Shown: positions 1 through 13,003 of the stretch, piece by piece
How the letters are laid out: each line of letters begins with the position of its first letter
How positions within the stretch are numbered: the stretch's first letter is position 1
Virus record (IMG/VR): IMGVR_UViG_2654587996_000003
Length of the DNA stretch: 13,003 bases
Reading direction: 5' to 3' (one strand)
Origin: a virus
Lineage: Duplodnaviria; Heunggongvirae; Uroviricota; Caudoviricetes
Program-made: the position numbers and the translations under genes
Notes under the pieces: model-generated
What the model was told of the DNA's origin: nothing
Seen by the model: the letters and a program-made list of their open reading frames with translations, nothing else
The model's database searches: none

Positions 1-1074
1 TCATTTGTTGATTTCAATTTTGTCCCATTCCCGTCCACGGCTGTCCCTATACCGCGCCGCCATTGAATCTGATTTATGCCCGAGAAGACGTTGAGCAAAC
101 TTATCGCCAATCTGGTTCAGGTATAGCCTCGCCGACAGGCTACGCAGTTCATGGAATGTTGGCGGGTCTCCATCAAATGAGAGTCCAGATGCATTTCTCG
201 CTTTTGTAAAATACTTCGATACTGTTTTCGGGGAAAGTGGTTCGTGATGCGTTGATGCAATTATTGTTTCACTGCTGCTGGTCTCCCTGCATTTCTGTAG
301 TGTATCAGCCAATGAGATATTGAGCGCGTCAATCGTTAGCGTCAGCGGAATGGCGAGCTTAGCCCCTGTTTTACTCTGTTCAATGTGAAGATGGTTGTCG
401 TTTATGTCTGACCATTTCATTCTGCACAAATCGCCCACTCTCTGCCCTGTAACGACAGCCAAATCCATTGCCAGCCTCAGCCAGATTGGGAGAGGTTCGG
501 CTGCATGGTAAATCGCGACATACTCATTAGCTGTCAGCCTTGAGCGCCTTACTTCTGACTTTGCTGTGCGGGTTGCTGTTACCGGATTCGTTGCCACATG
601 CCCCTCGGCTATTGCCTCACGAAAAACGTCAACAAGGGTTGACCTGATTAATTTTGCGGAAGCCGCTTTACCTTCTGCTACGTAGGTGTTTAGCATTGCT
701 GCCACCTCTTTCGTTGATATGTCAGCGAGCGGTTTGTCCGGCAATTTTCTTCGGATTGCCCTGATTTTGCTGGCGTAGTCGAGTAGAGTTTTCGGCCTGA
801 TACCCCTCTCGCTGAGGATTGTTTCATATCGGTCAAGCCACGCATGAAGAGTGATTACGTCAGCGCCTTTAATTCTGTCTATCAGTGACTCACGCCTGTT
901 CTCGGATAGTAACTCAATATTGGCCTGAATAGCCTCTGAAACTGCTATCCTTCTGTCTCTGCCTAATCCGAACTCTTTACCCGTCCTTGGGTCCCTGTAG
1001 CAGTAATATCCATTGTTTCTTATATAAAGGTTAGGGGGTAAATCCCGGCGCTCATGACTTCGCCTTCTTCCCAT
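1..1074 (-). CDS. int: Lambda-family tyrosine integrase (Int), apparently intact
   Basis: 357-aa ORF recognisably lambda-type Int (MGRRRSHERRDLPPNLYIRNNGYYCYRDPRTGKEFGLG arm-binding N-terminus). Catalytic residues appear present: R in VVTGQRVGDL, K in EQSKTGAK, H-x-x-R in PTFHELRSL, H in LLGHKSD, Y in AARYRDSRG. 23-nt overlap with xis, as in lambda. Diverged from lambda Int at many positions, so a relative rather than lambda itself. Confidence 0.95.
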   Translation of the reverse strand: MGRRRSHERRDLPPNLYIRNNGYYCYRDPRTGKEFGLGRDRRIAVSEAIQANIELLSENRRESLIDRIKGADVITLHAWLDRYETILSERGIRPKTLLDYASKIRAIRRKLPDKPLADISTKEVAAMLNTYVAEGKAASAKLIRSTLVDVFREAIAEGHVATNPVTATRTAKSEVRRSRLTANEYVAIYHAAEPLPIWLRLAMDLAVVTGQRVGDLCRMKWSDINDNHLHIEQSKTGAKLAIPLTLTIDALNISLADTLQKCRETSSSETIIASTHHEPLSPKTVSKYFTKARNASGLSFDGDPPTFHELRSLSARLYLNQIGDKFAQRLLGHKSDSMAARYRDSRGREWDKIEINK

Positions 1075-1270
1075 TTCTGATCCTCTTCAAAAGGCTACCT
1101 GTTACTGGTCGATTTAAGTCAACCTTTACCGCTGATTCGTGGAACAGATACTCTCTTCCATCCTTAACCGGAGGTGGGAATATCCTGCATTCGCGAACCC
1201 ATCGACGAACTGTTTCAGGGCTTCTTGGGCGTCGCTGGCGTGCGTTCCACTCCTGAAGTGTCAAGTACAT
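1052..1270 (-). CDS. xis: Excisionase Xis
   Basis: 72-aa ORF MYLTLQEWNARQRRPRSPETVRRWVRECRIFPPPVKDGREYLFHESAVKVDLNRPVTG..KRIRNGKKAKS, near-identical to lambda Xis as I recall it; overlaps the int start. Confidence 0.93.
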   Translation of the reverse strand: MYLTLQEWNARQRRPRSPETVRRWVRECRIFPPPVKDGREYLFHESAVKVDLNRPVTGSLLKRIRNGKKAKS

Positions 1271-1294
1271 CGCAAAGTCTCCGCAATTACACGC

Positions 1295-1317
1295 AAGAAA
1301 AAACCGCCATCAGGCGG
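1295..1317 (-). terminator. Putative intrinsic terminator (minus strand) between the 49-aa ORF and xis
   Basis: Plus-strand ccgcc-atca-ggcgg (1304-1317) forms a 5-bp GC stem; on the minus strand it is followed by TTTTTTCTT (complement of 1295-1303). The stop codon of the upstream small ORF lies in the loop. Confidence 0.4.
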
Positions 1318-1459
1318 CTTGGTGTTCTTTCAGTTCTTCAATTCGAATATTGGTTATGTCTGCATGTGCTATCTGCGCCCATATCATCCAGTGGTCATAG
1401 CAGTCATTGATGTTCTCTGCTTCGATAACTCTGTTGAATGGTTCTCCATTCCATTCCAT
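1310..1459 (-). CDS. Small hypothetical protein (49 aa) in lambda-like segment upstream of xis
   Basis: Hand-translated minus-strand ORF MEWNGEPFNRVIEAENINDCYDHWMIWAQIAHADITNIRIEELKEHQAA, open with no internal stop, ending in a hairpin terminator. AGGTGA lies immediately upstream of the ATG, too close for ideal spacing. Below the ORF-track size cutoff. Confidence 0.3.
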   Translation of the reverse strand: MEWNGEPFNRVIEAENINDCYDHWMIWAQIAHADITNIRIEELKEHQAA

Positions 1460-1490
1460 TCACCTGTGACTCGGAAGTGCATTTATCATC

Positions 1491-1520
1491 TCCATAAAAC
1501 AAAACTCGCCGTAGCGAGTT
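1491..1520 (-). terminator. Putative intrinsic terminator (minus strand)
   Basis: Inverted repeat aactcgc-cgta-gcgagtt (1503-1520), 7-bp stem; the minus-strand transcript continues UUGUUUUAUGGA. Confidence 0.3.
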
Positions 1521-1675
1521 CAGATAAAAGAAATCCCCGCGAGTGCGAGGATTGTTATTCATTGTCGATATTTACATTTATTTCGAATATCTTTACTGGG
1601 TAATCGCCAAAGTCATATGTTTTTTATTCTGTTTTATAAGCACTACCAAGTACTGCTTATTACAAATAAGAAAAG

Positions 1676-1709
1676 GCTGAAAAAAATATTTAAGGCCACA
1701 ACTGTGGCC
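1676..1709 (-). terminator. Putative intrinsic terminator downstream of the DUF1311 gene (minus strand)
   Basis: ggccac-aact-gtggcc hairpin (1694-1709) placed 11 nt after the stop at 1720; on the minus strand it is followed by UUAAAUAUUUUUUUC. Confidence 0.45.
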
Positions 1710-1719
1710 CTAAATTTAC

Positions 1720-2418
1720 TTACGGCACTGCGTTAATCAGATTACAAATACCTCTTTTGGCAGGGTCTGAATTCAACTTCTGAAAATTGGCGTTCAACAT
1801 AGCAGTGTGTAAGTGATTCTCAACCTCAAAGAATAGGTCGATTTTGCCCTCTTTGGCTGCCTGTTTCTTCCAAACATTCACTTGGTCATCAGCAATACGA
1901 CTGGCGCAAGTGAACAAGAACGAACTGCCTCTAGGAATGGATGTCGTGCTGTAATACTCACCATCTACTTCTACATATTTAGCTCGGAATGACTCTAAGG
2001 TTAGCTCATTGCCGTTCTTGACCGACTTAGCTTCTGCCTTACTTGTTTCTTCCTGCTCTTCAGAATGTTTCTGCGCCGACGTGGGTATCTCATTGGCCGC
2101 TGTTACGCTGACTGAACTCCCCAAACCGTTGAGGCCATTAATTTGGATAAGATAAGCCAGCTCCAGAGCCTTATTATCAGTGAGTTTTCCACGCATATTT
2201 ACCCACTGACGTTGAACCATTTTTAGGGTGTCTGCGTTCTCTGGGTTTTCTTTGAGGGCACTAGAATAGGCAGAGCTAAGCTGTTCGTCTAATTTTGACA
2301 GACGTTCGTTATCGCAGATTTTATGTTCGATTGCTGTCGAAGCCTTTTGGCAGTCAAAGCTGGCTGCAAATGCACCCGGCGATGCCACTAACAATGATGC
2401 CAGTAGGATATTTTTCAT
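1720..2418 (-). CDS. Secreted protein with N-terminal DUF1311 (LprI-N-terminal-like) domain; C-terminal ~110 aa unknown
   Basis: ORF-track 1720..2445. I place the start at internal ATG 2418 because GGAG sits 8 nt upstream and it yields a classic Sec signal peptide MKNILLASLLVASPGAFA/AS. The mature N-terminus FDCQKASTAIEHKICDNERLSKLDEQLSSAY...QRQWVNMRG fits the C..A.T..E..IC....L..LD..L...Y...Q..W pattern I associate with DUF1311. Confidence 0.7.
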   Translation of the reverse strand: MKNILLASLLVASPGAFAASFDCQKASTAIEHKICDNERLSKLDEQLSSAYSSALKENPENADTLKMVQRQWVNMRGKLTDNKALELAYLIQINGLNGLGSSVSVTAANEIPTSAQKHSEEQEETSKAEAKSVKNGNELTLESFRAKYVEVDGEYYSTTSIPRGSSFLFTCASRIADDQVNVWKKQAAKEGKIDLFFEVENHLHTAMLNANFQKLNSDPAKRGICNLINAVP

Positions 2419-2548
2419 ATTCACTCCATAAATACAAAAGCGCATTACTATAGCACTTAACCGATCGCTTATCTCGCCCGTTCGTCATTCTTATCTAACC
2501 AGAACATGCGGCTGCCACAGCACATGTCGAGGATCGCTGCATGTCCAG

Positions 2549-2716
2549 TCACCGGTTGCCTCCTTTGCGCAATATCGCATTCAGATATTTGTTTTGATTC
2601 ACTGATGGAAACGAGTTTCGCTTAAGTAATTCCTCTCTCGATGGCATTGGCTTTACGCGTTGGCGAATAATCATTTCTGCCGGAAGAATGCCGGGATTGT
2701 ATGCAAGTCCTCTCAT
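2549..2716 (-). CDS. Small hypothetical protein (55 aa), translationally coupled to the upstream 93-aa ORF
   Basis: Hand-translated [55 protein letters not shown]. Its ATG overlaps the TGA of the 93-aa ORF (ATGA at 2713-2716); GAGAG lies ~6 nt upstream. Below the ORF-track size cutoff. Confidence 0.35.
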
Positions 2717-2994
2717 GATTTACTCTCAACGAACTGGTCAATAGCCATGCTAAGTGACATACCTAAAGTTTCGATATGCTGCTGAATATCCTGTAGCGTC
2801 TGCGCCTGAGATAACAGGATTTCACGGTTGCATAACTCTTTAACCAGATGCTCAAACTTGCTGTAATAACCGATACGACTTAGTGTTTCTTTCCCTGCAT
2901 TCTCGCCTTCTTTGATAATTCCTCTTTCGCTAAGAATCAGATCGTGTTTGGTTCCGGTAATAACGTATTTTCCGAGGTCGATGTTTAGCTTCAT
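2713..2994 (-). CDS. Hypothetical protein (93 aa), no family recognised
   Basis: ATG-initiated ORF in the same orientation and tight spacing as flanking genes (16 nt after the 104-aa ORF stop; 4-nt overlap with the next ORF). Confidence 0.5.
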
Positions 2995-3010
2995 TGTTAA
3001 TTATTCCATG

Positions 3011-3325
3011 TTAATTTATTCGTATGCCTGCTCTTTCTTCATCGAGTTTTTTTAGCTTGTATCGCATAGCCCTTACTGAATAAATTGAGCGGCAGGTTGC
3101 AATTGCTATTTCTTCTGCGGAGAACTTACCGAAAAGTGATACTTCGGCTCTTGTCCAGCGTCTTCCACGAAGTCGGCTAACAATGTCAGCTCCAATCCTT
3201 GTTGCTTTCGCCATTACTGCTTTTTCAGTCCTTTCCAGTTTTTCAGCGATAACTTCAACTGGCATTGTTGCCGCTACTTCGCACAAGAAATCGACTTCCC
3301 ATTTCTCCCATGGAGTCTTTTTCAT
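3011..3325 (-). CDS. Hypothetical protein (104 aa) with an internal tandem duplication; possibly DNA-binding (speculative)
   Basis: ATG-initiated ORF 12 nt downstream of the Gp157-like gene. Two similar segments, WEKWEVDFLCEVAATMPVEVIAEKLERTEKAVMAKATRIG and WTRAEVSLFGKFSAEEIAIATCRSIYSVRAMRYKLKKL, share a W..(A)EV..(F/L)...(E/V)(V/E)IA.....R....AV/AM pattern. Confidence 0.5.
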   Translation of the reverse strand: MKKTPWEKWEVDFLCEVAATMPVEVIAEKLERTEKAVMAKATRIGADIVSRLRGRRWTRAEVSLFGKFSAEEIAIATCRSIYSVRAMRYKLKKLDEERAGIRIN

Positions 3326-3336
3326 AGTCGATACCG

Positions 3337-3819
3337 TTATTTGATAAGAAGTGAAGGTTTCCCAACTTTGAGTTGAGCGCCGGGGATATTTATTCCTGCT
3401 TTTAGTTGGTGTTTGATTGCCAGTTTGTCGGCTTTAATTGTCGTTTCAAACTCAACGTATTCAGGAGGAAGGGCGCTTGAGTCGATGATTTCTACAGTTT
3501 CTGACGGTTTGCGGATTGTTACTTGGTGAATACCTGCTCGAATCTTTTTCTTGCCAACCATTTCAAGCGATGACGCTATATACGCCATAATGCTGTCAAT
3601 CTTATTTTGAATTACTGCGGCTCGTTCATTCAGTGACTTTGCCTCGTCCTTGAGGCGTTCAGCATAACCAGATTCATTTTTAATAATGGCGAGAAGTTGC
3701 TCTATTTTATCGGTAAATTCTCCTTCCATTCCTTCTATTGTGTCAGCAATCATCTCTGGCTCTAAATCTGAATCCATCAATTTTGCGTATTCATTGGCTA
3801 TTTCATATAGTTTGCTCAC
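3337..3819 (-). CDS. Gp157-like (or Mu-Gam-like) accessory protein of a RecT recombination module
   Basis: ORF-track 3337..3825, where the M is a TTG codon. A better start is GTG at 3819, preceded by GGAGG at 6-nt spacing. Coiled-coil-like N-terminus plus a beta-rich C-terminus, sitting directly downstream of recT; recalled from memory as the siphovirus Gp157 family. Start overlaps the recT remnant stop. Confidence 0.6.
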   Translation of the reverse strand: MSKLYEIANEYAKLMDSDLEPEMIADTIEGMEGEFTDKIEQLLAIIKNESGYAERLKDEAKSLNERAAVIQNKIDSIMAYIASSLEMVGKKKIRAGIHQVTIRKPSETVEIIDSSALPPEYVEFETTIKADKLAIKHQLKAGINIPGAQLKVGKPSLLIK

Positions 3820-4372
3820 TGGCAACCTCCAGTTTCGCTTTGCATTCTATGTAAATGGCTTGTACGTTCTGCTGCAATTTCATTCCAGATGTCAGGCGAT
3901 ATGCTTCTGCAAAATATCGCTTCAAATCATCCATGTTTTCTGCCTGAGCCATTTCATCACAAAGAAGTTGTGCTTTTTCCATTATTTCCTGCTGGCGTTT
4001 CCGTTCATCTTCGCGGATATCTTCCTCTGATTTGTGCGGCATAACTGGTTCCTGATGCATACCTTCATCTTCGTTAAGCAGGTGAATGGCATTATCCAGT
4101 CGCTGGGCTTTAGGCCAGTATTTGCTGGCGCGTTTAACTATGGTTTTACGCGCCATCTCTTCCCAGAATGTCTTCCACGGTCCATTCTTTGCCTTGCTCG
4201 TTGCTTCCACAGCTTTAATTTCTGCCAGACTCATTTCTTCAGTCAGGTAGTCACCATCTGCTGTTTTAACCGTGCAATAACCTCCAACAATAGAGCCTCG
4301 CTCACCAAATGCGTTGTATTTGTGGGTTGGTGCTGAATCAAGGCCATTTGATTCATAGGTGTCGTTTGAGTA
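3803..4372 (-). pseudogene. recT: RecT-family single-strand annealing recombinase, 5-prime truncated (C-terminal ~189 codons only)
   Basis: The ORF-track fragment (3803..4234) contains ..NGPWKTFWEEMARKTIVKRASKYWP.., matching the RecT motif ..NGPWVTHWEEMAKKTAIRRLFKYLP... I hand-extended the frame upstream of the Met (..[35 protein letters not shown]..) and it stays RecT-like until an in-frame stop at 4373-4375. No N-terminal ~150 aa and no start codon. Confidence 0.7.
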
Positions 4373-4488
4373 TCAAAGGCGCATGTGATCAGCTACGGCG
4401 CTGGACATACGCTGGCGGTAAGCAATGGAAAGGGCTGATGACTCGCCGCGAGATTGAGCGTGAAGTCTGTTTGTGGGGGCAACAATGA
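4366..4488 (+). pseudogene. Phage lysozyme (endolysin R, P21/DLP12-type) 3-prime remnant, last ~40 codons only
   Basis: Hand translation of the frame ending at TGA 4486-4488 gives ..[38 protein letters not shown], which I recognise as the C-terminus of P21/RrrD-type lysozymes. The stop overlaps the Rz ATG (ATGA), as in lambdoid lysis cassettes. An in-frame stop at 4357-4359 and the recT-derived sequence lie immediately upstream. Confidence 0.6.
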
Positions 4489-4928
4489 GCAGAGTAACCG
4501 CGATTATCTCCGCTCTGGTTATCTGCATCATCGTCTGCCTGTCATGGGCGGTTAATCATTACCGTGATAACGCCATCACTTACAAAAAGCAGCGTGATAA
4601 GGCCACATCCACAATCGCTGACATGCAGAAGCGTCAACGTGATTTAGCTGAACTCGATGCCAGATATACAAAGGAGCTTGCTGATGCTAACGCGACTATC
4701 GAAAGTCTTCGTGCTGATGTTTCTGCTGGTCGTAAGTGGCTGCACGTCAAAGCAGTCTGTCCGGACAAGCATAAAACCACCGCCGCCTCCGGCGTGGATG
4801 ATGCTTCCAGCCCCAGACTTACTGACACCGCTCAACGGGATTATTTCGTTCTCAGAGAGCGCATCGAAACCATAACTAACCAATTGAATGGCCTGCAAGA
4901 GTATGTGAGATCACAGTGTTCATATTAG
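4485..4928 (+). CDS. Rz: Rz i-spanin (inner-membrane spanin subunit)
   Basis: ORF-track 4473..4928 (GTG). The ATG at 4485 gives [34 protein letters not shown]..., near-identical at the N-terminus to lambda Rz; N-terminal TM helix followed by a coiled-coil region. Confidence 0.9.
4684..4875 (+). CDS. Rz1: Rz1 o-spanin lipoprotein, embedded in the +1 frame of Rz
   Basis: ORF-track 4657..4875. Internal ATG at 4684 gives [20 protein letters not shown]|TSKQSV...KPPPPPAW...TPLNGIIS: lipobox Cys at residue 20, proline-rich mature part, matching lambda Rz1 in length and motifs. Confidence 0.85.
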
Positions 4929-4966
4929 AAAAGTCTTATCATAAGATTTTTGTATATGGATGCATT

Positions 4967-5341
4967 ATGTCTCAATACGCGCGCGCCGCTTTAATTGCTT
5001 ATTATTTGGTTGCTGATAATTCAATATCCCCTCGTGATGCATGGGATGCTGCTGTCGCTGAGGTTACAGAAAGCGAATCGGCAAGAAAGAAGGGATGCCC
5101 AAGGGCAACGTTTCTCGCTCTGGCGGATAGCGGTTATCTGAAGAATGTAAAACCACATCATGGGGAGAAAAAGATCGGTAAGTTGTACCAAAGGGCAATT
5201 GAAGTTGCGAATCTGATTCTTGATTTACCCGGAATTAGCAAAGCTGAGCTAGTTGATAAAACTTGCTATAAAGACAGGCAAGGGGCTTATGACATTGCTC
5301 TAACTCTCGCTCAGTGCGGATTACTCCAGCGTCCTCAATAA
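4967..5341 (+). CDS. Hypothetical protein (~124 aa) between the lysis cassette and cos; no family recognised
   Basis: ORF-track 4916..5341 (GTG overlapping the Rz end). First ATG at 4967 gives MSQYARAALIAYYLVADNSISPRDAWDAAVAEVTESESARKKGCPRATFLALADSGYL...; start choice is uncertain. Followed 19 nt later by a hairpin plus T-tract terminator. Confidence 0.5.
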   Translation: MSQYARAALIAYYLVADNSISPRDAWDAAVAEVTESESARKKGCPRATFLALADSGYLKNVKPHHGEKKIGKLYQRAIEVANLILDLPGISKAELVDKTCYKDRQGAYDIALTLAQCGLLQRPQ

Positions 5342-5359
5342 GATATTAAGTGATTTATG

Positions 5360-5383
5360 GCCTCGCTTTTAGCGGGGCTTTTT
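5360..5383 (+). terminator. Putative intrinsic terminator after the 124-aa ORF
   Basis: gcctcgc-tttta-gcggggc (7-bp stem with one G-U pair) followed by TTTTT at 5379-5383. Confidence 0.5.
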
Positions 5384-5770
5384 CATATCTGAATCTCACC
5401 ATGCATATCATCACCTGACTGGAACGTCAGGAGAATTCGTTACGGGGATTCGATAAAGGTATTCAAGCCTGACACATTATGCGCTGTATCGTCGCCGTAT
5501 TCCCGCATTAACCATGACCGTAGCCCGACGGGGAATTCCTTCTGCGCGAGTGTGCGGGAATAATCAAAAACGATGCACACCGGGTTTTTACCGCGTTTAT
5601 GATTCGCGGGTTTGTCCCTCATGCTCGCCAGTCCTGTGCGGGGGTGGAAGAAACAGGACGTGTATTCAGGTCTGTGCGACCGTGGTCGCACGACTTTGGT
5701 CGTTCAGATATTAAATCCCATTGCGAAGTAAACCCGAATTGCTGGCGGGTCCTTTCCGGCAATCCAGAAC

Positions 5771-5965
5771 GTTACGGGGCGGAAGGCGCGCGGGTTTTCG
5801 CTATTTATGAAAATTTTCCGGTTTAAGGCGTTTCCGTTCTTCTTCGCCGTAACTTAATGTTTTTATTTAAAACACCCTCTGAAAAGAAAGGAAACGACAG
5901 GTGCTGAAAACGAGCTTTTTGGCCTCTGTCGTTTCCTTTCTCTGTTTTTGTCCGTGGAATGAACA
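5771..5965. promoter_or_regulatory. cos: Lambda-type cos site: cosN (about 5777-5788) plus cosB with terminase-binding R elements, immediately upstream of Nu1
   Basis: Sequence gttacg GGGCGGAAGGCG CGCGGGTTTTCGCTATTTATGAAAATTTTCCGGTTTAAGGCGTTTCCGTTCTTCTTCG...GAAAGGAAACGACAG...CTGTCGTTTCCTTTC matches the lambda left end and cosB as I recall them, except within the 12-nt cosN core (lambda GGGCGGCGACCT). Inverted R2/R1 CGTTTCC elements are present. Confidence 0.75.
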
Positions 5966-6700
5966 ATGGAAGTCAACAAAAAGCAGCTGGCTGACATTTT
6001 CGGCGCGAGTATCCGTACCATTCAGAACTGGCAGGAGCAGGGAATGCCCGTTCTGCGGGGTGGTGGCAAGGGTAATGAAGTGCTTTATGACTCTGCCGCC
6101 GCCATAAAATGGTATGCCGAAAGGGATGCTGAAATTGAGAACGAAAAGCTGCGCCGGGAAGTTGAAGAACTGCGGCAGGCCAGCGAGACAGATCTCCAGC
6201 CAGGGACTATTGAGTACGAACGCCATCGACTTACGCGTGCGCAGGCCGACGCACAGGAGCTGAAAAATGCCAGAGACTCCGCTGAAGTGGTGGAAACCGC
6301 ATTCTGTACTTTCGTGCTGTCGCGGATCGCAGGTGAAATTGCCAGTATTCTCGACGGGATCCCCCTGTCGGTGCAGCGGCGTTTTCCGGAACTGGAAAAC
6401 CGACATGTTGATTTCCTGAAACGGGATATCATCAAAGCCATGAACAAAGCAGCCGCGCTGGATGAACTGATATCGACTTTCTCCGGGGATTATCTCCGCG
6501 TAACTGACAACAAGGGGAAAACGCACGACGTGCTGACCGGAAGTGATGACGGTCGCCACAGCAACACGTCTCTGACGTGGGGAGCTGGCGTGCAGTTTAA
6601 CCCGACCGAATCCGTGGCCATTGATATTGCTTATGAAGGCTCCGGCAGTGGTGACTGGCGCACTGACGGTTTCATCGTGGGTGTCGGTTATAAATTCTGA
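5966..6700 (+). pseudogene. nu1: In-frame chimera: terminase small subunit Nu1 (residues 1 to ~169) fused to the C-terminal ~75 residues of outer-membrane protein Lom
   Basis: Residues 1-169 (MEVNKKQLADIFGASIRTIQNWQEQGMPVLRGGGKGNEVLYDSAA...NKAAALDELI) match lambda Nu1. From about nt 6474 the protein switches to ..TSLTWGAGVQFNPTESVAIDIAYEGSGSGDWRTDGFIVGVGYKF, the Lom/Ail-family C-terminal beta-strands. A strong terminator follows, as after lom in lambda. Confidence 0.8.
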
Positions 6701-6726
6701 TTAGCCAGGTAACACAGTGTTATGAC

Positions 6727-6753
6727 AGCCCGCCGGTTCAGGCGGGCTTTTTT
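6727..6753 (+). terminator. Intrinsic terminator downstream of the lom remnant
   Basis: agcccgcc-ggttca-ggcgggct (8-bp GC-rich stem) followed by TTTTTT. Confidence 0.7.
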
Positions 6754-6764
6754 GTGGGGTGAAT

Positions 6765-9700
6765 ATGGCAGTAAAGATTTCAGGTGTACTGAAAGACGGC
6801 ACAGGAAAACCGGTACAGAACTGCACAATCCAGCTGAAAGCAAAACGTAACAGCACCACGGTGGTGGTGAACACGCTGGCCTCAGAAAATCCGGATGAAG
6901 CCGGGCGTTACAGCATGGACGTTGAGCACGGTCAGTACAGCGTTATTCTGTTGGTGGAGGGGTTCCCGCCATCACATGCCGGGACCATTACCGTGTATGA
7001 AGATTCCCGACCCGGTACGCTGAATGATTTTCTCGGTGCCATGACGGAGGATGATGCCCGTCCGGAGGCACTACGCCGTTTTGAACTGATGGTGGAAGAG
7101 GTGGCGCGTAACGCGTCCGCGGTGGCACAGAACACGGCAGCCGCGAAGAAGTCAGCCAGCGATGCCGGCACATCAGCCCGTGAGGCGGCAACCCATGCGA
7201 CTGATGCTGCAGGCTCAGCACGTGCAGCCAGCACATCAGCCGGGCAGGCCGCGACGTCGGCTCAGTCAGCATCTTCCAGCGCAGGAACGGCATCAACAAA
7301 GGCCAGTGAAGCGGAAAAAAGTGCTGCCGCTGCAGAGTCCTCAAAAAGCGCGGCAGCCACCAGTGCCGCTGCGGCGAAAACGTCGGAAACGAATGCGGCA
7401 GCGTCACAACAATCAGCAGCCACTTCTGCATCCGCCGCGACCATGAAGGCGTCAGAAGCTGCCACCTCAGCCCGGGATGCGGCGGCCTCAAAAGAGGCAG
7501 CGAAATCATCAGAAACGAACGCATCATCAAGCGCCAGTAGTGCCGCTTCCTCGGCAACGGCAGCAGGCAATTCCGCGAAGGCGGCAAAGACGTCCGAGAC
7601 AAACGCCAGGTCTTCTGAAACGGCAGCGGGACAGAGCGCCTCGGCTGCGGCAGGCTCAAAAACAGCGGCTGCGTCGTCTGCCAGTGCAGCGTCAACAAGT
7701 GCCGGGCAGGCCTCAGCCAGTGCCACCGCCGCCGGAAAATCGGCAGAAAGTGCCGCATCGTCTGCTTCAACAGCCACAACGAAGGCTGGCGAAGCCACTG
7801 AACAGGCCAGCGCAGCAGCGAGGTCTGCTTCCGCAGCGAAGACATCCGAGACGAACGCGAAAGCGTCGGAAACCAGCGCAGAATCCTCAAAAACGGCTGC
7901 CGCATCGTCCGCCAGTTCGGCGGCGTCATCGGCATCATCGGCGTCTGCTTCAAAAGATGAGGCGACCAGACAAGCGTCCGCAGCGAAGGGCAGCGCCACG
8001 ACAGCATCCACGAAGGCGACAGAGGCAGCTGGCAGTGCGACGGCGGCAGCACAGAGCAAAAGTACGGCGGAATCCGCGGCAACGCGCGCCGAGACAGCGG
8101 CAAAACGGGCAGAGGATATTGCATCCGCCGTGGCGCTTGAGGATGCGAGCACGACGAAAAAGGGGATAGTACAGCTCAGCAGCGCGACCAACAGCACGTC
8201 TGAAACGCTGGCGGCAACGCCAAAGGCAGTAAAAGCAGCCTATGACAATGCAGAGAAACGTCTGCAGAAAGACCAGAACGGCGCTGATATACCCGATAAG
8301 GGACGCTTCCTGAACAACATTAACGCGGTCAGTAAAACAGACTTTGCTGATAAGCGTGGTATGCGTTATGTGCGGGTTAACGCTCCTGCAGGTGCAACAT
8401 CTGGAAAATATTATCCTGTTGTTGTTATGCGTTCTGCTGGCTCAGTAAGCGAACTGGCATCAAGGGTCATTATCACCACGGCAACGCGAACCGCAGGCGA
8501 TCCGATGAATAACTGCGAGTTTAACGGATTTGTTATGCCTGGTGGCTGGACTGACAGGGGGCGTTATGCTTATGGAATGTTCTGGCAATATCAAAACAAT
8601 GAACGAGCCATCCACTCAATAATGATGAGTAATAAGGGCGATGATTTGCGCTCTGTGTTCTATGTTGATGGCGCTGCTTTCCCTGTTTTTGCGTTTATCG
8701 AAGATGGCCTGTCAATATCCGCACCTGGTGCTGATCTCGTTGTTGATGATACGACCTATAAGTTTGGGGCAACAAATCCGGCGACTGAATGTATCGCGGC
8801 GGACGTTATCCTTGATTTTAAGAGTGGGCGTGGTTTTTATGAGTCCCATTCGTTAATCGTTAACGATAACTTGTCGTGCAAAAAACTTTTTGCCACAGAC
8901 GAAATTGTAGCGCGTGGTGGTAATCAGATTCGAATGATAGGTGGGGAGTATGGGGCATTATGGCGTAATGATGGCGCTAAAACTTACCTGCTGCTTACCA
9001 ATCAAGGTGATGTTTATGGTGGATGGAATACATTAAGACCGTTTGCTATTGATAACGCAACCGGCGAACTGGTTATTGGAACCAAGCTGTCTGCAAGTCT
9101 GAACGGTAACGCATTGACAGCAACAAAGCTGCAAACGCCAAGACGGGTTTCTGGTGTTGAGTTTGATGGTTCCAAAGATATTACTTTAACCGCCGCGCAT
9201 GTGGCTGCTTTTGCCAGAAGGGCAACGGATACATATGCCGATGCGGATGGTGGCGTTCCCTGGAATGCCGAATCAGGCGCTTACAATGTCACCCGCTCTG
9301 GCGACAGCTATATTCTGGTTAACTTCTATACCGGAGTCGGAAGTTGCCGGACCCTGCAGATGAAGGCGCATTACAGAAATGGTGGTCTGTTCTACCGTTC
9401 TTCAAGAGACGGTTATGGTTTTGAGGAAGACTGGGCAGAAGTTTATACCTCGAAAAATCTTCCACCAGAAAGCTACCCAGTCGGCGCACCAATCCCGTGG
9501 CCATCAGATACCGTTCCGTCTGGTTATGCCCTGATGCAGGGGCAGACTTTTGACAAATCTGCTTACCCGAAACTTGCAGCCGCTTATCCGTCAGGCGTGA
9601 TCCCTGATATGCGTGGCTGGACGATTAAGGGCAAACCTGCCAGTGGTCGGGCCGTATTGTCTCAGGAACAGGACGGCATTAAATCGCATACCCACAGCGC

Positions 9701-10115
9701 CAGCGCATCCAGTACAGATTTGGGGACGAAAACCACATCGTCGTTTGATTACGGCACTAAATCCACGAATAACACCGGGGCACATACACACAGTGTTAGC
9801 GGTACGGCTGCTTCAGCCGGTGCACATACCCATTCGATGACATTTGTTTCAGGTGGTTCCAGTGGTGCTCCGGGAAGTGGATCACCTGATTATTCTAAAT
9901 ACAGTGTTAACACTTCTTCTGCAGGCGCTCATACGCACTCTGTATCGGGTACTGCTGCAAGCGCAGGTGCACATGCACATACTGTCGGTATTGGTGCTCA
10001 TACGCACTCTGTTGCGATTGGCTCACATGGACACACCATCACCGTTAACGCTGCTGGTAACGCGGAAAACACCGTCAAAAACATCGCATTTAACTACATT
10101 GTGAGGCTTGCATAA
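6765..10115 (+). CDS. stf: Side tail fibre protein (Stf; StfR/lambda-Stf-like), apparently full length (~1116 aa)
   Basis: ORF-track 6759..10115 (GTG); ATG at 6765 gives [37 protein letters not shown]..., the conserved Stf N-terminus. Long Ala/Ser/Thr-rich repetitive shaft; C-terminal GAHTHS-repeat receptor-binding region; stop overlaps the tfa ATG. Confidence 0.9.
7110..8150 (+). repeat. Ala/Ser/Thr-rich quasi-periodic coding repeats within the stf shaft
   Basis: Recurring peptide blocks such as [69 protein letters not shown] and [26 protein letters not shown]-rich DNA here generates long stop-free ORFs in other frames on both strands. Confidence 0.6.
9778..10045 (+). repeat. His-containing GAHTHS(V)[12 protein letters not shown] repeats in the stf C-terminal region
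   Basis: Repeated motifs [59 protein letters not shown]. The DNA copies differ at synonymous positions, so the repeat is conserved at protein level. Confidence 0.6.
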
Positions 10116-10699
10116 TGGCATTCAGAATGAGTGAACAACCACGGACCATAAAAATTTATAATCTGCTGGCCGGAACTAATGAATTTATTGGTGAAGGTGA
10201 CGCATATATTCCGCCTCATACAGGTCTGCCTGCAAACAGTACCTATATTGCACCGCCAGATATTCCGGCTGGTTTCGTGGCTGTTTTCAACAGTGATGAG
10301 GCATCGTGGCATCTCGTTGAAGATCATCGGGGTAAAACGGTTTATGACGTAGCGTCAGGGGACGCGTTATTTATTTCTGAACTCGGTCCGTTACCGGAAA
10401 ATGTTACCTGGTTATCGCCGGAAGGGGAGTTTCAGAAGTGGAACGGCACGGCCTGGGTGAAAGATGCAGAAGCAGAAAAACTGTTCCGGATCCGGGAGGC
10501 GGAAGAAACAAAAAACAGCCTGATGCAGGTAGCCAGTGAGCATATTGCGCCGCTTCAGGATGCTGCAGATCTGGAAATTGCAACGGAGGAAGAAACCTCG
10601 TTGCTGGAAGCCTGGAAGAAGTATCGGGTATTGCTGAACCGTGTTGATACATCAGTAGCACCGGATATTGAGTGGCCTGCTGTCCCTGTTATGGAGTAA
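10115..10699 (+). CDS. tfa: Tail fibre assembly protein Tfa
   Basis: 194-aa [57 protein letters not shown]..., near-identical to lambda Tfa as I recall it; start overlaps the stf stop. Confidence 0.92.
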
Positions 10700-10802
10700 T
10701 CGTTTTGAGATACGCCGCATACACGTTGTATGCAATAACGTGCTGCGGCTTGGTAAATTTTAGCTAGTTTCAGCAGGAGACATAAAAAACTTCAGTATAA
10801 GA

Positions 10803-11591
10803 TTAAGCATCACGTATTGCCAATCTGATTTTTGACTGATACCAATTGGGGCCTTCTGCAATTATTTCTTCCTCAACATGCATGATGGGATGCATTTCAA
10901 TTTCAGAGTTTTTGACTTTCAGATCTAGTCCATATTTTTTTGAAATTTGTAAAACTTCATTTTTGAAATCCTTATCTGCGAAAGGTGAAATCCTTATTTC
11001 TTCCAACAGATTATTAAGAGATACAGGGACTAGTTTTCCCTTTACAGGTGGAGTGTTAAAGGTATTCTCTTGAAAAATAGCTCTAAACTCTTTTTCGTAT
11101 TCGAAAGATGGTCTCTTGTTAAAGAATACATCTGATTCTGGATTGTATTGTTTTATCCAGAAATTTTTGACGTATTTTACGTGTTTTAATTGTAGTTTGT
11201 TTAGATTATTATTTTCAAGTTGGCTTTGGAGGTTTTTTTTCTTTGATTTTATGACAACGCCTTTAGCGGGGTTTTTACAATACAGCTTCCACATAGCTTC
11301 AGATTCATGTTCGTTACAATGCCAGCAACTTATATATGTCCTCTCGCTTATTTCCTTAAGTGTCTTTAAATTGAATGCCATGAAAGGATCTAAGTCCATG
11401 CCGGCACCATGAGTAGCGCATAGTTTTTCCTGTGTCTCAATGAATTTTTTATAGCCAGTATGTCCCCAAGCAAATTCACCTTCGAACGGATCTTCAAAAT
11501 TTTTTGCTGAGCAAAAAAATAAAGCATTTTGTTCGAGTAACATAGAGAATTTCTCTATGTCAAGGTATCGCCATATATACTCAGTGTGCAT
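10803..11591 (-). CDS. Hypothetical protein (262 aa), DUF2971-like N-terminal motif; AT-rich cargo gene
   Basis: ORF-track 10803..11606, where the M is a TTG codon. ATG at 11591 is preceded by AGGAG at 5-nt spacing and gives MHTEYIWRYLDIEKFSMLLEQNALFFCSAKNFEDPFEGEF..., matching the Y.Y....l..lL....l.f.....F.DP.E block I associate with DUF2971. Lys/Asn-rich and visibly much more AT-rich than flanking phage DNA. Confidence 0.6.
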   Translation of the reverse strand: MHTEYIWRYLDIEKFSMLLEQNALFFCSAKNFEDPFEGEFAWGHTGYKKFIETQEKLCATHGAGMDLDPFMAFNLKTLKEISERTYISCWHCNEHESEAMWKLYCKNPAKGVVIKSKKKNLQSQLENNNLNKLQLKHVKYVKNFWIKQYNPESDVFFNKRPSFEYEKEFRAIFQENTFNTPPVKGKLVPVSLNNLLEEIRISPFADKDFKNEVLQISKKYGLDLKVKNSEIEMHPIMHVEEEIIAEGPNWYQSKIRLAIRDA

Positions 11592-11716
11592 GATAGCTCC
11601 TTGCAATATAACTATTTCTATCTGTTCATTTGTACTTAAAAAGGATTGAGTAGCCTGAACAGTTCTATCCGTAAATATACCAGATAGAAGAGTTGTACAA
11701 TAACAAATCCTCCGTA

Positions 11717-11759
11717 TAAGAACCAGCCATAATAGTCTGGTTCTTAAGGTTTTTTTTTC
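11717..11759 (+). terminator. Strong hairpin plus T9 intrinsic terminator on the plus strand, in the intergenic region between the two minus-strand cargo genes
   Basis: taagaaccag-ccataatagt-ctggttctta (10-bp stem, 11717-11746) followed by ggTTTTTTTTT (11750-11759). The T-tract is on the plus strand only. Confidence 0.5.
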
Positions 11760-11800
11760 GAGGGGGGTAACCTACGATTCGTCCCCATATCGGCGATAAA

Positions 11801-13003
11801 TTAGGCTTGTACCAACGCTTCTGTTTCTGTGAGTGAAATTTGATAGCGTTTTACTGCCTCAGCAAAGGCGTGCGCGGCATCTGCATTTGATACCATATAT
11901 TCTTCAGTTACCCCTGTTTGAGAATGGAAAGTAATATTTCCATAAATGCAAATAGGGATTTGGTAGTTGTCTTTAAAACGACGGTCTGGTGAGCCATTCT
12001 TATTCGTTTTCGCCCATGTATAACCATCTATGCGTGAGTCACTGGGAACACCTTCTTCCTCATGGAATCTTAGATATTCTGAACTAATTTGTAATTCGCG
12101 TAAATCAATCAGAGCGAATGCTCCATCAGCTCGTGGTATGACTGCAACTCCAGGATAAAGCAAAATATCGTCTCCATTTACATTTTCAAACCTCATCGCA
12201 CGCCCTGTAAATTGAATGAAATCCGTTGAACTAAAATCAAAGGTAACTGGGTGACGATTAACAGACCGGGTTGCTAATGTTCTTTCAGCAAACTGGTCTG
12301 TAGCTTTATCTGCAGTAATATCCCATTTTTTGACACTCGATTTTAACATATCAAATGCATGGACCATCGCTGCATATGCGCGCTGTGAAGCATCACTGCT
12401 CTCGAATGTTATGGCTATTTTTGTGCTGTCTTCCCATGAAACTAGGCGAGATATCTCAGCTTGGGTTAGGGGGAGTAGTGTCTCAAGTTCTGCGATGCGT
12501 CGTTTGTAAAACCAACGGAATAGACTTGATTTGCGTCGAGCCAGCTCGCTTTTTTGTTTTGATTCTTCGGCAAGAGCCTCTTGAAGATCTGCTTTTATCT
12601 CTGCTCTTTGTTCTCGTGCTTTAGCAATCAAATCTCGTAAAGGTAAAAGGGAGGTACTTGTAAGGACTTCTACCGAAGCGCTGGATATTTCATTCATGCC
12701 AGCTACAGGCATATATATTTTAGCGTTCGATGGTGTGTTTTCTGGAGATGACCCAGACTCCAAATGAGGTTCTGTAGGGGCTGGATTTAATGGATTGGTA
12801 ACTGAGTATCCATCATCATAGGGCAAGGTAGGTGTAGTATAAGATAAGCCTGTGCCCGGTAATCCGACAGTTGCTCTAACCCCTTTTTTACCAACATTGA
12901 CAGTTGCGCCAGGCACGCCAATGCTTGCACTTATTCCACGCTTGCCAATGTTGAGTCGAACGCCAGGAAATAGAGTAAAGGTTTGTCTGAAACGAAGAGA
13001 CAT
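11801..13003 (-). CDS. Hypothetical protein (400 aa) with N-terminal DUF4236-like domain; central coiled-coil-like segment; C-terminal ~200 aa unknown
   Basis: Start codon is the last three bases of the window. N-terminus MSLRFRQTFTLFPGVRLNIGKRGISASIGVPGATVNVGKKGVRATVGLPGTGLSYTT has the repeated G-x-R/K...G glycine-rich pattern I associate with DUF4236. A charged helical stretch (REQRAEIKADLQEALAEESKQKSELARRK) follows. Composition is lower in GC than the tail-fibre genes. Confidence 0.65.
   Translation of the reverse strand: MSLRFRQTFTLFPGVRLNIGKRGISASIGVPGATVNVGKKGVRATVGLPGTGLSYTTPTLPYDDGYSVTNPLNPAPTEPHLESGSSPENTPSNAKIYMPVAGMNEISSASVEVLTSTSLLPLRDLIAKAREQRAEIKADLQEALAEESKQKSELARRKSSLFRWFYKRRIAELETLLPLTQAEISRLVSWEDSTKIAITFESSDASQRAYAAMVHAFDMLKSSVKKWDITADKATDQFAERTLATRSVNRHPVTFDFSSTDFIQFTGRAMRFENVNGDDILLYPGVAVIPRADGAFALIDLRELQISSEYLRFHEEEGVPSDSRIDGYTWAKTNKNGSPDRRFKDNYQIPICIYGNITFHSQTGVTEEYMVSNADAAHAFAEAVKRYQISLTETEALVQA

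Follow-up and report, generated by a model that had tools for sequence, protein, structure and literature searches.

The right-hand end of a 13,003-nucleotide stretch of viral DNA (IMG/VR record IMGVR_UViG_2654587996_000003; hereafter the window) carries two adjacent genes, in the arm of a lambdoid prophage between tfa and attR. One encodes a 262-amino acid (aa) protein with a DUF2971 domain (10803–11591, minus strand) and the other a 400-aa protein with a DUF4236 domain (11801–13003, minus strand), the ATG of the latter being the last codon of the window. Judged by comparison of their sequences and surroundings, these appear to be two unrelated, separately mobile single-gene cassettes (‘morons’) lying side by side. 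It is fairly probable, in our view, that the package consists of two independent pieces of cargo, namely an ADP-ribosyltransferase (ART) gene for abortive infection and a gene for a membrane-near protein made by the lysogen. The DUF2971 family is already known, having been flagged in PADLOC, predicted to be an ART and validated once, in Lactococcus. The family of the 400-aa protein appears to be large, coherent, mobile and strongly constrained, and to keep company with defence genes; the main interest of the locus lies in this gene rather than in the pair.

The original prediction, made from the letters of the window, had placed two co-oriented minus-strand open reading frames (ORFs) 209 bp apart between tfa and attR, where lambda carries its b region. 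The ORFs, the gap (11592–11800) and the site were all confirmed, with homology to E. coli K-12 resuming at 25516 in the numbering of the E. coli M8 locus (L001, in which 13673 corresponds to window ~4372), and the positional analogy to lambda is correct. Both genes had also been called far more AT-rich than the flanking phage genes. When computed, this was borne out with one correction: the DUF2971 gene has a G+C content (GC) of 0.343, and the 400-aa gene, at 0.428, lies below stf and tfa but not below the early genes of the prophage (0.40–0.45). The spacer has a GC of 0.373, the rest of the window (1–10699) 0.488, stf 0.539 and tfa 0.485; the lowest-GC 500-bp segment of the whole sequence begins at 10751 (0.314; mean for the window 0.471, standard deviation 0.067). 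For GC at third codon positions (GC3), the DUF2971 gene (0.319) and the DUF4236 gene (0.302) have the two lowest values in the window, the other genes ranging from 0.33 to 0.58, and the foreign mark of the 400-aa gene is in GC3 only, not in total GC. In this low-GC3 form, the claim of foreign cargo in the tfa–attR arm of a lambdoid prophage is supported.

Cargo slots of lambdoid prophages hold a range of morons and exclusion genes, including those of the lambda b region, rexAB, sieB, cor, HK97 gp15 and stx between Q and S. Both genes resemble prophage morons in being autonomous, foreign in composition, antisense to the late operon and located in the tfa–attR arm; paralogues of the 400-aa protein also use the slot between Q and the lysis genes, and the 400-aa gene has a promoter-like site and flanking terminators. 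Unlike small membrane exclusion proteins, the 400-aa protein of E. coli has neither a membrane helix nor a signal peptide. Neither protein resembles the lambda b-region proteins Ea47, Ea31 and Ea59, and neither gene is a housekeeping gene. Megablast of the DNA against the phage collection gave no lambda b-region match, and neither protein is similar in sequence to lambda or Escherichia phage proteins, tblastn of both against 50,697 phage records having matched no Escherichia phage record. Only families of ‘unknown function’ were found for the two proteins in PHROGs, and NCBIfam holds no model for either.

The earlier suggestion that these may be two independent single-gene systems rather than one operon agrees with the comparative data. 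Homologues of the 400-aa protein are found without DUF2971 in Klebsiella (93% identity), where a different lambdoid prophage carries the gene flanked by ssrA/smpB and the tail fibre; in Edwardsiella and 13 E. coli genomes (76–79%), antisense between antiterminator Q and the lysis genes; and alone in the chromosome in Serratia, Paracoccus and Phaeobacter. Conversely, homologues of the DUF2971 protein are found without DUF4236 in Enterobacter (81% identity), following ogr at one end of a P2-like prophage; in Pseudomonas, again in a P2-like prophage, beside portal/terminase genes and an S-pyocin pair, at the site known from P2 as the gpA–gpQ hotspot for defence genes (10.1101/2021.01.21.427644); and in an island that also carries GIY-YIG, Mrr-like and methyltransferase-HD genes. 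Outside the E. coli block, the two families did not co-occur in any of 7 DUF4236 contexts, 9 DUF2971 contexts or 98 clustered loci. DNA homology also ends at different points for the two genes, the DUF2971 unit covering 10803–11611 and the DUF4236 unit 11715 to ~13149, so that within the spacer (11592–11800) positions 11612–11714 belong to neither conserved unit and mark the junction.

The 400-aa protein (PHROG 17982) begins with a DUF4236 domain, as had been proposed. Pfam PF14020 matches residues 3–56 (12836–12997, minus strand) across its full profile (1–55), with 76.1 bits against a cut-off of 27 (E = 3.1e-21). The domain comprises 4–5 Gly-punctuated beta-hairpin repeats of ~10 residues each, modelled by AlphaFold2 (AF2) as strands within residues 7–60 at a predicted local distance difference test score (pLDDT) of ~50. 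The ‘coiled coil’ of the original prediction corresponds to a predicted antiparallel helical hairpin (residues 117–193; 12425–12655, minus strand). In the AF2 model as a whole (mean pLDDT 69), the low-confidence beta-hairpins are followed by a disordered linker, the confident helical hairpin, and then a small alpha/beta region and a beta-rich domain with a C-terminal helix (pLDDT 80–95). Residues 95–400 (11804–12721, minus strand) make up an unnamed conserved module, consisting of the helical hairpin and an alpha/beta domain that ends in a beta-sandwich with a C-terminal helix cap. No Pfam, NCBIfam or PADLOC model covers this module, a profile search of the PDB with the 400-aa family gave no match at E ≤ 10, and a literature search on DUF4236 (PF14020) found nothing relevant.

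Searches with residues 95–400 retrieved 2,913 cluster representatives at E ≤ 1e-3, of which 393 remained at the stricter threshold of E ≤ 1e-30. These come from at least eight phyla, including the Proteobacteria and, at 30–40% full-length identity, the Acidobacteriota, Verrucomicrobiota, Bacteroidota, Chloroflexota, Nitrospirota and Cyanobacteria; Microcystis phages carry family members as well. Identity to the 400-aa protein is 87–93% in Klebsiella, Serratia and Yersinia and 65–70% in the Rhodobacterales, where the homologous genes have a GC3 of 0.67–0.70 despite this level of protein identity. An N-terminal DUF4236 domain is present in 80 of 100 relatives, with a C-terminal SH3b domain added in 31 and PG_binding_1 in 3. 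In the long forms checked, a transmembrane helix is predicted between the conserved module and the peptidoglycan-binding domain, which, by extension across the family, would place the module on the cytoplasmic face of the inner membrane.

The DUF4236 gene is accompanied by putative expression signals of its own. At 11717–11758 on the plus strand, a 10-bp hairpin (11717–11746) is followed by a run of nine T residues (11750–11758); folding gave −13.9 kcal/mol (z = −3.6) for the plus strand and −15.5 kcal/mol (z = −4.6) for the minus strand. This element reads as an intrinsic terminator for rightward transcripts of the late operon, as a hairpin followed by T9 on the plus strand would stop late-operon read-through. 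Past the end of the window, L001 22406–22470 contains an upstream hairpin with a T-run and a promoter-like TTCACC-16-TATCAT. The upstream terminator, the promoter-like site and the 3′ hairpin travel with the gene, homology to Klebsiella reaching 11715. A consensus promoter/terminator scan remained at background level, and visual inspection and folding revealed the hairpins; the scan missed the 11717 hairpin because its loop is longer than 8 nt. Being antisense to the late genes, and having its own promoter-like site and terminators, the DUF4236 gene appears to be built for expression in the lysogen.

To describe the surroundings of the family, genes within four positions were compared at 98 loci, with immediate neighbours (n = 149) counted at ~76 species-level loci. 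No conserved partner was found at the 98 loci, the largest cluster being antiterminator Q at 6 loci. Large superfamily 1 (SF1) helicase–MTES_1575 nucleases account for 8 of the 149 immediate neighbours, with a ninth three genes away, and these proteins match PADLOC Hhe (E = 1e-191) and PDC-S37 (E = 0). Those outside Azospirillum are from Verrucomicrobia, a proteobacterial metagenome-assembled genome (MAG), Arenibacter and Prochlorococcus. PDC-S02 directly adjoins the family gene at two loci, and YhcG-type PD-DExK nucleases likewise at two; strong matches to ZorC, ZorD, HamA, DpdE, PDC-S08, PDC-S22 and PDC-M11A were seen among second neighbours at single loci. Hhe (HheA)/PDC-S37 proteins are thus recurrent neighbours of the 400-aa family, but no domain is common to Hhe and the 400-aa protein, and most family members have no Hhe neighbour. 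A single co-transferred clade of Hhe-adjacent homologues was considered and rejected, as such homologues are spread over five separate branches of the tree.

Two further arrangements were noted at these loci. In Azospirillum picis, a gene for an Hhe/PDC-S37-like protein of ~1,660 aa (L050 2996–7990) and the homologue of the 400-aa gene (8001–9194) are on the same strand with a 10-nt gap, an arrangement also seen at L051, L056, L058 and L061 and possibly a two-gene operon variant. At three loci, a gene for a voltage-gated-type ion channel (~255 aa; Ion_trans, E = 1e-23 to 4e-34) adjoins the homologue in varying orientation (L101 7239–7997 in Prochlorococcus, L108 9111–9911 in Synechococcus and L112 9112–9876 in a Bacteroidetes MAG).

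Our best guess for the 400-aa protein, held tentatively, is that it acts as a sensor or effector at the membrane face in conflict with phages or mobile elements. It would be a stand-alone protein that the lysogen expresses from the gene's own promoter and that works on the cytoplasmic side of the inner membrane. A role in defence is suggested by the company that the family keeps, defence genes being more frequent near it than we would expect by chance, which is suggestive as a raw count taken without a matched control. In a stronger version, which we regard as doubtful, the 400-aa protein would be the first E. coli example of a large, unrecognised single-gene conflict family that senses or blocks the entry of phages or elements at the inner membrane face, either alone or as an accessory to Hhe-type helicase–nucleases, with the Gly-rich beta-hairpin N-terminal domain serving as an oligomerising or membrane-engaging module.

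Several observations weigh against a role in defence. The defence-model scan of the 400-aa protein returned nothing at E ≤ 1 (5,027 hidden Markov models (HMMs), PADLOC-DB v2), and Foldseek against the PDB gave no match at E ≤ 1e-3, the hits below threshold (MscS at E ~0.01 with a TM-score of 0.13, and scattered PH domains at E = 0.16–1) being too weak to use. The protein is conserved more strongly than is typical of fast-evolving immune genes, five of the Hhe-like cases represent one Azospirillum lineage, and most of the 98 loci show ordinary neighbours with no defence genes among them. In Microcystis phage Mea-Yong924-1, a full-length homologue (L022 6067–7140; 32% identity across 98% of the query) immediately follows terL and is co-oriented with the packaging and structural genes, a position that hints at a function on the side of the phage.

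A non-defence role for the 400-aa protein is accordingly a serious possibility, if one we hold to be somewhat short of even. It could be a lysogenic-conversion or envelope factor, or could serve the phage or element in anti-defence, superinfection control or as a virion or assembly accessory. Besides the Microcystis phage homologue, the silent PADLOC scan and the ordinary neighbours, such a role would fit the purifying selection on the gene with its unusually high cross-class conservation, the SH3b and PG_binding_1 fusions, which point to the envelope and not to nucleic acids, and the DUF4236 domains that are common in proteins of lytic and jumbo phages. Against it stands the arrangement in enterobacterial prophages, where the gene is antisense to the late genes with its own putative promoter and terminators, as for expression in the lysogen. 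The scattered adjacency to Hhe-like genes, together with the single Zorya, Hachiman and Dpd cases, would also be hard to obtain by chance, although an anti-defence gene could give the same pattern. Should the membrane-face conflict protein prove correct, the immune repertoire could gain a single-gene system close to the membrane, or an accessory to Hhe; if the gene is instead an ordinary conversion gene, the block is routine prophage cargo. Once shown, the function would in either case annotate thousands of ‘DUF4236 domain-containing proteins’.

For the DUF2971 protein, two assignments of the start codon differ. The RefSeq annotation by the prokaryotic genome annotation pipeline (PGAP) begins at an internal Met at 11543 (246 aa) and drops 16 residues that hold a conserved W-R-Y strand. 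The 262-aa form is favoured because of a ribosome-binding site, AGGAG (11597–11601, minus strand), 5 nt upstream of the ATG at 11591; homologues and the PHROG profile align from residues 5–7 of this form. The assignment to DUF2971 made in the original prediction passes Pfam (PF11185; 30.7 bits against a cut-off of 22) and agrees with the RefSeq annotation, but the match covers residues 100–170 and there is no N-terminal motif as had been described. DUF2971 was the only family found in a Pfam scan of the protein at E ≤ 1. In PADLOC, four models of PDC-S31, a single-gene family nominated by its association with defence islands, match the protein (best HMM PDLC04993, E = 3.5e-20, residues 80–233). 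The solitary state of the gene in every context examined fits the single-gene architecture of PDC-S31. The defence-model scan proposed earlier gave matches for this protein alone of the two, and its description as part of an ‘undescribed’ system did not survive, given the PDC-S31 match, the predicted ART identity of its Pfam family and the validation of Aristaios, a family member considered below.

A structure model built from a 43-sequence alignment (pLDDT 92.4, predicted template modelling score 0.83) shows the split beta-sheet core of the ART fold, to which, in contrast to DarT, sizeable helical insertions and an additional C-terminal stretch (residues ~176–262) are joined, so that the 262-aa protein is a predicted solo DarT-like ART. 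Residues C89, W90, Y140, K159, E166, E168 and R170 are invariant in the 43 homologues, and Y104 is conserved in 41 of these. The ExE motif, E166-K167-E168 (11088–11096, minus strand), corresponds to ART motif III and lies at the start of strand 168–174, with both Glu residues invariant (43/43); this agrees with the literature, in which DUF2971 is predicted to group with DarT/AbiGi-like ADP-ribosyltransferases and its ExE is reported as conserved (PMC12522546). W7-R8-Y9 lie on the first strand (5–11), and among the 36 homologues having that N-terminal segment Trp is found in all 36, Arg in 35 (Lys in the other) and Tyr in 33 (Phe in three). From conservation and strand position, the candidates for motif II are Y86-I-[S/N]88-C89-W90 on strand 85–91, Y104 and Y140. 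Taken together, the conserved residues would fit an active ART enzyme.

The only tested member of the family is Aristaios, a 316-aa DUF2971 protein encoded on Lactococcus plasmid pUCCL641_199 (Grafakou et al. 2024; PMC11381338), which has been validated as a single-gene abortive-infection system that blocks phage transcription (PMC11381338, PMC13064643). Like the 262-aa protein, Aristaios is the product of a single gene on a mobile element, with a DUF2971 domain and a predicted ART fold; it differs in belonging to another host phylum and in being 54 residues longer, and the likeness is by Pfam domain and predicted fold. Its abortive infection provides a working model for the action of the 262-aa protein. 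Likeness to DarT, the single-stranded DNA thymidine ADP-ribosyltransferase of DarTG, is at the level of fold only, and a PDB profile search with the DUF2971 family, covering all sequences with DarT included, gave no match at E ≤ 10. DarTG moreover has a DarG macrodomain antitoxin, and none is present at the locus of the 262-aa protein or at those of its homologues; on this basis the 262-aa protein is not a DarTG member.

An account in which the DUF2971 protein is a phage-activated ADP-ribosyltransferase that acts on nucleic acid seems to us the likelier one, by a modest degree. It would be an abortive-infection-type anti-phage toxin, inactive in the healthy lysogen and switched on by an infecting phage; once active, it would use NAD+ to ADP-ribosylate nucleic acid or, less likely, protein, and this would halt phage transcription or replication, as reported for Aristaios in Lactococcus. 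A number of points tell against this account. The Pfam score is modest, and R8 was assigned to ART motif I by position and conservation rather than by residue-level superposition. No DarG or macrodomain gene was found next to the gene at the E. coli, Enterobacter, Pseudomonas or island loci, and neither an RNA antitoxin, a repeat array nor a small partner ORF was found, Rfam having given only IS009 in tfa. No paper naming PDC-S31 was found in the literature, the family being a bioinformatic candidate. In some E. coli the gene is, moreover, a pseudogene, and 18% of DUF2971 proteins are predicted to be (secreted) effectors (PMC12522546).

This last point belongs with the view that the DUF2971 protein is not an immune protein at all, and instead either serves the element itself as a toxin (addiction or post-segregational killing) or, as an effector or regulator, ADP-ribosylates a target of the host or of a competitor. 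The ART fold is common to the toxins of toxin–antitoxin systems and to secreted effectors, and tblastn against 72,556 plasmids found homologues on plasmids, both small and large, of Bacillus, haloarchaea and Acinetobacter, which fits plasmid maintenance, and also in Alteromonas (no Lactococcus record was among the matches listed). We consider this view rather unlikely. Neither a signal peptide nor a secretion-system context was seen for the 262-aa protein, no antitoxin gene or RNA adjoins its gene, and its known surroundings are defence hotspots of prophages and an island of restriction type; the PDC-S31 match and the abortive infection caused by Aristaios point the same way. As a representative of the solo DarT-like DUF2971 enzymes carried by an E. 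coli prophage, the gene would allow standard genetics in a coliphage model to address its target (DNA, RNA or protein), what triggers it and how it is controlled without an antitoxin.

Both genes could also be idle now, the block being decaying junk in a dead prophage, which is very unlikely. A large deletion inside the prophage has left a remnant, several of whose genes are pseudogenes, and the DUF2971 gene is frameshifted in a sizeable lineage of E. coli. An A8 tract at 11233–11240 (minus strand; codons 116–118) is A7 in the AR216.2b lineage, with the result that the reading frame shifts at codon 118, upstream of the ExE motif, and the protein is truncated at ~residue 130. This 788-bp allele was seen in ~8 of 25 sampled carrier genomes; it carries linked single-nucleotide polymorphisms and is therefore unlikely to be a sequencing error. 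In the window, by contrast, both ORFs are intact with good ribosome-binding sites, and dN/dS values measured against distant copies (0.10–0.11 for DUF2971 and 0.07–0.12 for DUF4236) indicate that both genes are under purifying selection. The 400-aa protein is intact in the AR216.2b lineage, with only four substitutions between the two prophage contexts, and its gene is intact in at least 134 genomes. The A7 allele itself may represent either pseudogenisation or a slippage-prone tract that turns the gene on and off.

Among 5,426 complete E. coli genomes, 122 carry the DUF2971 gene, and all 122 also carry a 99%-identical DUF4236 gene. The pair is found in at least two different E. coli lambdoid prophages, at ibsB in M8 and at tRNA-Pro/yejM in AR216.2b, which have in common a 2.7-kb block (window 10568 to ~13277) at 98.5% identity. 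That the two genes form one two-component system (toxin and regulator or antitoxin, or sensor and effector), co-selected in the tfa–attR slot, is highly improbable and appears largely refuted by distribution already, for although the co-oriented pair, 209 bp apart, is constant across these E. coli carriers at two attachment sites, and a solo toxin-like ART would plausibly need a partner, identities of at least 98.5% among the E. coli copies indicate recent spread of one block by recombination rather than independent co-selection, in which the genes travel jointly because they are neighbours only, and the two are never neighbours outside E. coli, have separate cassette borders with a hairpin between, differ in that DUF2971 is frameshifted where DUF4236 is intact, and in 13 E. 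coli genomes are represented by the DUF4236 paralogue alone.

The window matches E. coli M8 (NZ_CP010191.1) with 100% identity and covers the defective lambdoid prophage from its integrase gene as far as the DUF4236 start codon. At window ~4372, a recT gene without its N-terminus adjoins a lysozyme gene without its N-terminus, and this fusion of two truncated genes implies that one deletion took the replication, immunity/regulation, head and most of the tail genes. By comparison with K-12, the insertion site is the ibsB/sibB type I toxin–antitoxin locus between mdtA and ibsA, homology breaking at L001 9238, just left of window position 1, and at 25516, 3.2 kb past the window end. The junctions themselves are marked only by an imperfect repeat of ~24 bp. 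A 45-bp repeat was considered as attL/attR and rejected, being the sibA/sibB paralogous repeat; the junctions were set by the K-12 comparison.

From the stop codon of tfa (10115–10699, plus strand; Caudo_TAP, E = 2.3e-44), which lies 103 bp left of the 262-aa ORF, to attR, the arm measures 5.5 kb and holds four minus-strand genes, two of these beyond the window. The 3′ end of tfa (10568–10699, plus strand) forms the left edge of the block common to the two E. coli prophages. Between the DUF4236 gene and attR lie a gene for a 213-aa protein (L001 22880–23521, window-equivalent 13579–14220, minus strand; GC 0.39), which gave no matches, and one for a 355-aa protein (L001 23874–24941, window-equivalent 14573–15640, minus strand; GC 0.33) with a weak C-terminal MTES_1575/DUF559 (Vsr-like) nuclease domain. 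The latter, two genes upstream of the DUF4236 gene, has the nuclease domain family of Hhe but no helicase, and its gene is missing altogether from the AR216.2b context. The two cargo genes were considered as Hhe-like remnants and rejected as such, since only the nuclease domain family is in common (blastp E = 0.16).

A few observations elsewhere in the prophage are of note. Rfam IS009 (RF02111) matches inside the 3′ end of tfa at 10500–10656 on the plus strand (172 bits against a gathering score of 117, E = 2.4e-42); the match begins at the edge of the searched segment and probably reaches further left. The side tail fibre gene stf (1,118 aa) encodes ~1.2 kb of Ala/Ser/Thr-rich low-complexity repeats at ~7000–8250, a stretch with a GC of 0.61–0.62 and strong AT skew. 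In the early region, an LprI-family ‘lysozyme inhibitor’ gene (1720–2445, minus strand) is likely to be another accessory gene.

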